A DNA stretch of 64,000 nt from an uncultured Actinomycetes bacterium (lineage in GTDB: Bacteria > Actinomycetota > Thermoleophilia > RBG-16-64-13), in the NCBI GenBank assembly GCA_903873715.1, contig CAIQPS010000029.1, forward strand, positions 3,210-67,209, given 5' to 3'. Below the pieces are notes generated by a model. The model was not told the origin of the DNA, made no database searches, and worked only from the letters and a program-made list of their open reading frames with translations. Below, piece after piece: positions 545 through 1,414 of the stretch (position 1 is the first letter of the stretch; every line of letters begins with the position of its first letter). The translations under genes were made by a program, and so were the position numbers.

Positions 545-1410
545 GTGGCTGACAGCAACGGGAACGGCAACGGCAAACGGCCGCGGACTGCGGTCCAGGC
601 AGGCGGCGTCGAGGCGGCCCTCCGGGGCTCCGCCCTCTACGAAGTGCTCAAAGGCATCGACTTCGAGCGCCGCCAGCTGGTCGGCAAGAGTCCGGGTGTA
701 GGCCTGCTGGACCTCACGGAGAAGCCGGGCGGCGGCTACAACTGCTACGCCTGCACCCTGTGCGAACGGGTCTGCCCGGTGGACGCCATCGAACTGGAAT
801 ACTGCCCGGAGTTCCCGGAGCAGCCCTTCGACGCCGAAGCCGCTCGGGCCGCGGCCCTGGCGGCCGGCCCCGGCGAGAGCTGCGGAGCGGCTTCCGCCTG
901 CGTGATGGGGGAGAAACCGGCGTTCGTGCAGGTCCCGGTGGACATGAGACTCCTGGATCCGGTCATCGCGGGCATCCGCTCGGGGTCCGGCCTCATAGAA
1001 GCCATGCACGCCACCCAGGAAGCCTATGGATATCTCCCCCGCGTGGCTTTGGAAGCCATCGCCGACGAGATGCACCTCGATTTCTCCCGGGTCTACGGGG
1101 TGGCCAGCTTCTACAGCCAGTTCCGCCTCAAGCCGGTGGGCAAGTACGTGATCGATGTCTGCATGGGCACCGCCTGCCACGTGGCCGGCGCCCCGTTGGT
1201 GCTGGAGGCCTTCAGCCAGGAGCTCGAGATCCCGGTGGGTGACACCACCGCCGACGGGCTCTTCACCCTGCAGACCGTCAACTGCGTGGGCGCCTGCGCC
1301 CTCGCCCCGGTGGTCCGCCTGGGCTCCGACGAGACCTTCGGCCGCATGGGCCCGAGCGAGGCCCGCAGGCTGGTCCGGCGACTGCGCAAGCAGGAGCAGG
1401 AGGCGACCCG

Positions 1411-1414
<4 letters not shown>
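545..1414 (+). CDS. Fusion of a single-cluster 4Fe-4S ferredoxin (PorD-like, CYACTLCERVCP) with a NuoE/HoxE/HydC-like thioredoxin-fold [2Fe-2S] subunit
   Basis: GTG start with a weak GAAGG Shine-Dalgarno. The N-terminus has a CxxCxxCxxxCP motif. The C-terminal half carries a 24-kDa-subunit (NuoE) signature (..VCMGTACHVAG..VNCVGACALAP..). Its stop overlaps the next start as ATGA. Confidence 0.75.

Follow-up and report, generated by a model that had tools for sequence, protein, structure and literature searches.

A conserved ferredoxin-type extension on a NuoE/BfuC-like subunit and its candidate complement in a BfuA::PorB fusion of uncultured Thermoleophilia

Why would a NuoE-like [2Fe-2S] subunit carry a ferredoxin motif at its N-terminus? 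The question is raised by a gene at 545..1414 (+) of a 64,000-nucleotide (nt) stretch, hereafter the window, of contig CAIQPS010000029.1 (positions 3,210 to 67,209 of the forward strand; assembly GCA_903873715.1) from an uncultured Actinomycetes bacterium of the Thermoleophilia lineage RBG-16-64-13. The gene is an intact open reading frame (ORF) of 289 amino acids (aa) whose product, here called the extended BfuC, is a NuoE/HydC/BfuC-like subunit with an N-terminal extension, and it lies among genes for a 2-oxoacid:ferredoxin oxidoreductase (POR). The initial annotation read the extension as half of the PFOR delta subunit, PorD. Our sequence comparisons suggest a different origin: the extension is probably the N-terminal half of a NuoI-type 2x[4Fe-4S] domain, the C-terminal half of which would be residues 676-715 of a BfuA::PorB fusion protein encoded two genes further on.

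The gene starts with a GTG at 545, which has a GAAGG 9-10 nt upstream, and its stop codon overlaps the start of nuoF in an ATGA at 1411-1414. The NuoE/HydC/BfuC domain proper spans 944..1411 (+) and comprises a helical N-terminal part and a thioredoxin-like [2Fe-2S] domain with cysteines C206, C211, C247 and C251. A domain search confirmed this assignment: PF01257 (2Fe-2S_thioredx) matches aa 148-280 with an E-value of 7.4e-43 and 146.3 bits, against a gathering score of 24.8, and HoxE/NuoE models of NCBIfam match the same residues (E 1e-40 to 1e-38). The four [2Fe-2S] ligands are invariant in an alignment of 25 homologues and are kept in 92-95% of an unfiltered 79-sequence alignment, where gaps or frameshifted sequences account for most exceptions. 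Together with the adjoining, co-translated NuoF/HydB-type flavoprotein gene, which is kept in 80 loci of a scan that took one genome per species (nearly all metagenome-assembled genomes (MAGs) labelled Thermoleophilia, Gaiellales or Actinomycetota), these features place the protein in the NuoE/HydC/BfuC family. Ahead of the NuoE domain lie about 133-145 aa, rather than the roughly 100 first reported, which hold a single CxxCxxCxxxCP motif, CYACTLCERVCP (aa 67-78, nt 743-778; C67, C70, C73 and C77). This extension is translated and conserved, as is evident from three observations. The G+C content at third codon positions (GC3) over 545-943 is 0.87 in the frame of the gene, compared with 0.52 and 0.74 in the other two, and resembles that of the flanking genes; homologues of 260-307 aa, at least 120 in number, are 74-88% identical to the protein and span 89-100% of it; and in the alignment of 25 homologues conservation begins at about residue 28, while the variable tails before it start with a Met aligned to the GTG at 545.

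Profile comparisons related the extension to NuoI. It matched the NuoI model TIGR01971 over profile positions 34-62 only (27.6 bits), and when its profile was compared with the PDB, the NuoI/Nqo9/TYKY chains, that is the 2x[4Fe-4S] subunit of complex I, came out on top (E 2e-11), a significant similarity to ferredoxins. The extension that the initial annotation described is thus ferredoxin-type as well as real. The PDB alignment took in the strand before the first motif, and PFOR chains were absent among the best 60 PDB matches listed. Aligned to Escherichia coli NuoI, the profile consensus reads vGlldlvkekeGdyrCyaCtlCertCPvdcIeley. We place the putative half-ferredoxin at aa 28-90 (626..814, +), made up of the pre-motif strand FERRQLVGKSPGVGLLDL and the motif CYACTLCERVCP. 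When 1.84 billion representative proteins were searched with the extension profile, one narrow family of its own was recovered, of which 13 representatives, largely fragments, reached E <= 1e-10; the next ranks were taken by NuoI-like proteins and by a few proteins of 250-490 aa that matched at the same N-terminal offset. Several of the latter consist of an N-terminal dicluster ferredoxin domain and a C-terminal thiamine pyrophosphate (TPP)-binding domain of the PorB type (unsplit Fd::PorB), others being truncated or frameshifted, and no architecture carrying the extension was found in this search beyond its own family, NuoI-like proteins and Fd::PorB. The ferredoxin domain of one unsplit Fd::PorB protein, P0172, itself matches NuoI (E 2.8e-13), and its residues 28-76 align without gaps to residues 40-88 of the extension at 45% identity (E 5e-12). 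An hhalign comparison of the extension with Fd::PorB gave 52 columns at a probability of 97.3% (E 2.6e-11).

A candidate for the missing half is found in the bfuA::porB fusion gene (3318..6443, +), whose GTG start overlaps the nuoF stop codon (GTGA, 3318-3321), 3' of GGAAGGAGG. From Pfam and NCBIfam domains and alignment to solved chains, the 1041-aa product contains, in order, a [2Fe-2S] domain, a GltD/NfnB-like domain for flavin adenine dinucleotide (FAD) and NADPH, a HydA/HoxU-type Fe-S domain, a NuoI-like C-terminal half-domain and a TPP-binding PorB domain. Beyond the GltD domain there are three CxxCxxCxxxC motifs, here termed a, b and c (aa 618, 661 and 693, respectively). Motifs a and b have the 43-aa spacing and the sequence of the HydA/HoxU FS4A/FS4B domain, and they match HoxU/[FeFe]-hydrogenase profile positions 138-208 in the same scan that gave the NuoI scores. 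The BfuA region is homologous to StnA, NfnA and HydA chains, and alignments to StnA 8oh5_C, NfnA 9n5u_A, 9bov_A and HydA 7p5h_A/8a6t_A cover motifs a and b and end at fusion aa 677-680. Because all of these alignments stop just past motif b, motif c is surplus to BfuA. It occupies aa 693-704 (nt 5394-5429; C693, C696, C699 and C703), just ahead of PorB, within the segment that we propose as the partner of the extension (aa 676-715; 5343..5462, +; RRLDSFKVDESRCIMCRECVNVCPVDGL). NuoI is again the best-scoring family, TIGR01971 positions 69-117 being matched by fusion aa 672-745 with 43.1 bits. Compared with P0172 aa 55-445, fusion aa 661-1035 are 56% identical, and motif c, linker and PorB fall without gaps on the second motif, linker and PorB of P0172. 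When fusion aa 600-801 served as the query of a protein search, the matches were confined to fragments of the fusion's own family and to ordinary PorB proteins.

The two segments are complementary. When the extension was joined to fusion aa 676-745, NuoI was matched in one stretch over positions 34-116 of 121, with 73.8 bits and E 8.5e-21. This score lies below the family cut-off of 113, and the joined halves resemble a NuoI-like domain, not a NuoI subunit. Against the N-termini of four unsplit Fd::PorB proteins, the joined halves showed indels of 2-3 residues only, and the columns that never vary in that alignment coincide exactly with the two motifs and the NuoI-like residues flanking them. 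A count of ferredoxin motifs per polypeptide leads to the same pair: PorD has two, the extended BfuC one, the C-terminus of BfuB two and the fusion three, and only the extension motif and motif c are unpaired. They also persist together, both being present in 52 of 52 cleanly extracted loci.

We compared the cysteines of the extension in 72 unframeshifted orthologues from species-level genomes. C67, C70, C73 and C77 are present in 72 of 72, and P78 is likewise invariant; in the fusion, C693, C696, C699 and C703 are invariant in 57 of 57 loci. The NuoI-like flank residues R43, L45, K48, G53 and L57 of the extension do not vary in its alignments either. Most orthologues possess four more cysteines, C81, C87, C113 and C119, in a C-x5-C ... 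C-x5-C pattern, but none of these is common to all members. Position 81 (nt 785-787) is Ala in five orthologues, this window included, C87 (nt 803-805) is lost in three, and the segment with C113 (nt 881-883) and C119 (nt 899-901) is deleted in six species, in which the linker (aa 91-133; 815..943, +) is short and Ala-rich at that point; C77 is never lost. In the ferredoxin fold, the fourth cysteine of each motif ligates the cluster of the other motif. The invariance of C77 and the lack of a universal remote cysteine therefore fit a two-cluster domain completed by motif c, and fit a self-sufficient one-cluster domain less well.

It is possible, though unlikely, that the extension is such a self-contained single-cluster domain and acts as a ferredoxin tethered to BfuC. 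C67, C70 and C73 would then bind a [4Fe-4S] or [3Fe-4S] cluster together with a remote cysteine (C119, C113 or C87), and C77 would be spare or engaged in a disulfide, for which monocluster ferredoxins of the Desulfovibrio gigas FdII or Pyrococcus type offer a model. The CxxCxxCxxxCP-x35-CxxxxxC pattern of most orthologues speaks for this, as does the fairly good conservation of aa 91-133 in the main clade (mean column identity 0.80). In addition to the loss of every candidate remote ligand in some species, however, a single-cluster domain would leave motif c unpaired, and it does not explain why each of the two orphan halves matches the half of NuoI that the other lacks, or why they form one continuous domain in P0172. 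The extra cysteines, conserved in the main clade (C87, C113 and C119, usually also C81), could belong to another metal site or to disulfides.

We consider it quite improbable that the extension has ceased to bind Fe-S and persists, after a gene rearrangement, as a structural tether, a docking arm or a site for Zn or another metal. In its favor, the Pfam Fer4 matches of the extension stay below their gathering scores (Fer4_21, 19.6 compared with 35; Fer4, 18.1 compared with 21.1), and AlphaFold2 produced no confident fold. However, the four motif cysteines and P78 are invariant in 72 species, the five flank residues are invariant as well, and such conservation would be unexpected of a relic.

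In favor of the PorD interpretation of the initial annotation stand the single ferredoxin motif, the position of the gene after porA and the surplus motif in the GltD/PorB fusion. The gene does follow porA, of which the 3' part (alpha subunit) occupies 1..522 (+) and matches PF17147 (PFOR_II, E 2.6e-32) and PorA_Arch (E 7.9e-47; profile positions 224-386 of 387, that is, to the profile end), the window beginning inside porA. Homologous extended genes next to POR genes were also recovered from other genomes, in 80 species-level loci, and by tblastn with each component their order, as far as the contig reaches, was porG-porD-porA-[ext::nuoE]-nuoF-[bfuA(GltD)::porB] in 80 of 80. In every homologous locus whose 5' flank is long enough, an intact porD precedes porA; the corresponding region of this genome lies outside the window, 5' of its first base. 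Two long contigs with orthologues, L001 and L002, have, in this order, porG (POR, ~205 aa), porD (107-132 aa, two ferredoxin motifs), porA (400 aa), ext::nuoE, nuoF and the fusion, and the PorD of L001 scores 91 bits with TIGR02179 against a cut-off of 60. Relative to the canonical order porG-porD-porA-porB, the gene for the extended BfuC takes the place expected for the 5' end of porB, and not that of porD. PorD has two motifs in one polypeptide of ~80-130 aa encoded between porG and porA, whereas the extension has one motif and its gene lies after porA. No PorD_KorD (TIGR02179) or other PorD model was among the NCBIfam matches of the extension at E <= 0.01, and hhalign against operon-type PorD aligned 20 columns, the bare motif, at a probability of 63%, compared with 52 columns at 97.3% for the NuoI-like Fd::PorB. 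Given the NCBIfam, hhalign and synteny results, and with NuoI as the best-scoring family for both halves, we rejected the extension as a PorD half, a highly improbable reading unless this one genome has no porD 5' of the window. What survives of it is an apparent half-ferredoxin on the NuoE-like protein with an apparent other half in the GltD-like protein; the domain so divided resembles NuoI, and not PorD. It is hardly credible that the extension is an annotation artefact with the true start at M134 (ATG at 944), since, although this Met lies 14 residues ahead of the NuoE domain and long spurious ORFs are common in the 67% G+C window, a start 3' of the motif and a chance upstream frame are ruled out by the GC3 signal and by protein conservation from residue 28 on in 80 species, with N-terminal Met aligned at 545. 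The gene may have an additional internal start.

From the homology and complementarity of the halves, their conservation and their synteny, we infer how clusters may be bound and how the halves may assemble in trans, along with the path and direction of electrons. The N-terminal half would contribute one beta-strand and the first CxxCxxCxxxCP motif, and the second motif, between the BfuA Fe-S and PorB domains, would complete the domain when the subunits assemble and both halves fold as one. We predict that cluster 1 is ligated by C67, C70 and C73 of the extended BfuC and C703 of the fusion, and cluster 2 by C693, C696 and C699 of the fusion and C77 of the extended BfuC. The reassembled domain would physically clamp BfuC to BfuA::PorB, and its two clusters would serve as an additional relay that connects the POR chain (TPP, PorB cluster, PorD clusters) with the Nfn-type Bfu module, whose predicted sites are FAD-NADP(H) in BfuA and flavin mononucleotide (FMN)-NAD(H) in BfuB. 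Pyruvate/acyl-CoA and pyridine nucleotides could then exchange electrons with no free ferredoxin involved on the POR side, one possible overall reaction being 2 NADPH + NAD+ + acetyl-CoA + CO2 <-> 2 NADP+ + NADH + pyruvate + CoA. In Nfn-Bfu structures ferredoxin docks by the mobile domain of BfuC (PMC12018979), and an Fe-S domain near the ferredoxin site is for that reason possible. Tethered there by BfuC, it could allow POR to stand in for free ferredoxin, or else it may pass electrons straight into the BfuA chain.

The gene order is colinear (porA, N-half::nuoE, nuoF, bfuA::C-half::porB). This is the order that one insertion event would yield, with a nuoE-nuoF-bfuA cassette entering an ancestral Fd::porB gene in frame between its two motifs. 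The event may have run either way, as insertion of the cassette into Fd::porB or as a secondary re-fusion, since unsplit Fd::PorB genes are rare and stand-alone. Taken as a whole, a naturally split 2x[4Fe-4S] domain that arose by cassette insertion, with each cluster ligated by both BfuC and BfuA::PorB, in a self-contained Por-Nfn-Bfu enzyme in which POR replaces free ferredoxin, is a plausible but tentative proposal that we would not call probable.

Several points weigh against a split domain of this kind. AlphaFold2 modelling of the native protein from the 25-sequence alignment gave a mean predicted local distance difference test (pLDDT) score of 46.9, with the extension below 45. In a chimera of extension aa 28-95 and fusion aa 676-1041, modelled with an alignment of unsplit Fd::PorB and plain PorB homologues, the PorB part was good and the ferredoxin part reached a pLDDT of 35-58. 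Confidence in the ferredoxin part was thus too low in both models for them to be informative. The 32-aa spacing from motif b to motif c would also suit a conventional b+c dicluster domain, and the pairing of a with b rests on homology to solved BfuA-type chains. In most orthologues C81, C87, C113 or C119 may supply the extension with a fourth ligand of its own. Unsplit Fd::PorB genes are few (28 matches) and stand-alone; an ancestral porGDA-Fd::porB operon was sought and not found, as porA, porD and porG were not detected near five unsplit Fd::PorB loci. These stand-alone genes (~70% G+C) lie at L004 2325-3800, L085 10001-11500, L086 10001-11300, L087 8001-9480 and L088 3370-4680, and where genes were called, their neighbors are EamA, rubrerythrin or 4HBT genes. 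Finally, no precedent of a 2x[4Fe-4S] ferredoxin domain that is split in nature is known to us, although no targeted literature search was made.

How does this locus compare with known systems? On domain content, the gene set has the architecture of an Nfn-type BfuABC (StnABC/NfnABC) that follows porA and runs on, as a fusion, into porB. The bfuB gene (1411..3321, +; 636 aa, NuoF/HydB-like; PF01512 E 9e-43, PF10589 E 1.5e-32, PF01257 E 1.3e-7, nuoF_fam E 4e-138) encodes an N-terminal thioredoxin-like 2Fe-2S domain, an FMN/NADH site, an NADH_4Fe-4S domain and a C-terminal 2x[4Fe-4S] domain, with Fer4 domains at aa 569-620. The BfuB and BfuA regions have the domains by which Schut et al. (2022; PMC9304861) define BfuABC, for BfuA at least one 2Fe-2S and one 4Fe-4S ferredoxin domain, and electron bifurcation is predicted here. 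The same authors describe the cofactor content of BfuBC as 'absolutely conserved', with one cluster in BfuC. By this definition the extended BfuC is unusual, as the initial annotation had held for NuoE-type subunits generally: published BfuC proteins have ~150-170 aa and one cluster, whereas here an extension of ~133 aa adds a conserved CxxCxxCxxxCP motif. In Nfn-Bfu structures, BfuC consists of an N-terminal four-helix bundle and a mobile [2Fe-2S] domain, and ferredoxin docks between that domain and the ferredoxin-like domain of BfuB (PMC12018979). As in Nfn-Bfu/StnABC (PDB 8oh5, 9n5u; PMC9304861, PMC12018979), the C-terminal 150 aa of the extended BfuC form a standard NuoE/HydC domain with four cysteines for the C1 [2Fe-2S] cluster, and the gene is followed by a BfuB-type NuoF (N-terminal 2Fe-2S, C-terminal 2x[4Fe-4S]) and a BfuA with a GltD/NfnB-like FAD-NADPH insert. 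Unlike in those enzymes, BfuA is fused to PorB.

Por-Bfu enzymes, predicted and uncharacterised, combine POR subunits and BfuABC as seven separate subunits in Chloroflexi and Proteobacteria (Dehalococcoides, syntrophs), and Nfn-Bfu forms a distinct class (PMC9304861). The present locus resembles Por-Bfu in having POR subunits and BfuABC in one operon and in its proposed link of pyruvate/acetyl-CoA to NADH and ferredoxin. It differs in that the BfuA of Por-Bfu lacks an NADP(H) domain, whereas here BfuA has an Nfn-type GltD domain and is fused to PorB, and in its Thermoleophilia lineage and its ferredoxin domain, which appears divided between BfuC and the fusion. The words 'fused', 'fusion' and 'extension' are absent from the text of PMC9304861, and when we searched the literature for a hybrid of the Por/Nfn/Bfu kind or for a POR-NuoEF complex of Thermoleophilia, two papers with mentions of Por-Bfu came up and nothing more.

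Among ferredoxin-domain proteins, NuoI/Nqo9/TYKY is the best profile and PDB match of both halves; the strand that precedes motif 1 is shared, as is the sequence R..x..[FY]x[VI]Dxx[RK]CIxC that leads into motif 2. NuoI itself is a single chain (140-220 aa) that binds NuoH/B/D, whereas here ~100 aa are spread over two proteins in a POR/Bfu context. In P0172-type Fd::PorB, the NuoI-like domain is contiguous and lies directly before a PorB 56-67% identical to that of the fusion; there the domain is unsplit and the genes are stand-alone, with no adjoining Bfu genes. PadI, the beta subunit of NADH-dependent phenylglyoxylate dehydrogenase, was counted with the PorB proteins that have an N-terminal ferredoxin by the length of its NCBIfam model, and it resembles the fusion only in PorB and where motif c ends (profile positions 124-431 of 443). 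With PorD, the extension shares the generic CxxCxxCxxxCP motif and nothing beyond these 20 residues.

Further observations concern the neighborhood. On L001 a TPP riboswitch (Rfam RF00059, 67 bits) is located at 7520-7621 (-), upstream of porG at 7843, and L002 has the same layout. In both contigs the riboswitch precedes a divergent thiamine pyrophosphokinase/YkoF/energy-coupling factor (ECF)-transporter operon that adjoins the por-bfu operon, in a region corresponding to one outside the window, 5' of position 1; a TPP-dependent enzyme thus neighbors thiamine salvage genes in L001 and L002. Downstream of the fusion, a gene at ~6460-7072 (+) of the window appears, from its ORF translation, to open with a His-rich stretch, ERHDHHHHHEHG, and by synteny with L001 and L002 it would encode a small S-adenosylmethionine (SAM)-methyltransferase-like protein. 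The acetyltransferase gene that separates the fusion from the methyltransferase-like gene in L001 appears to be absent from the window. An antisense ORF of 1065 aa at 3216-6413 (-) spans nearly the whole fusion, and many other ORFs of more than 300 aa overlap real genes; long overlapping ORFs of this kind commonly arise as artefacts at 67% G+C and do not indicate genes.

The locus is a hybrid of Por and Nfn with a BfuA::PorB fusion and, as we propose, a divided ferredoxin domain, and it is widespread in uncultured Thermoleophilia. The operon, in which POR is combined with an Nfn-type BfuABC, is kept in at least 80 species-level genomes (Thermoleophilia/Gaiellales MAGs) from uncultured soil and sediment Thermoleophilia. 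Bfu enzymes form a large family with a BfuBC core described as invariant, and Por-Bfu has so far been a prediction only. Three features go beyond the published classification: POR together with an Nfn-type, NADP-binding BfuA; the covalent BfuA::PorB link; and a half-ferredoxin on BfuC with its apparent complement in the fusion. If the proposed reading is true, this operon would represent a natural ferredoxin fold split across subunits, serving as both clamp and wire, and a clear example of a domain interrupted by an inserted gene cassette, and it would point to a route between pyruvate/acetyl-CoA and NAD(P)H that does not depend on ferredoxin.

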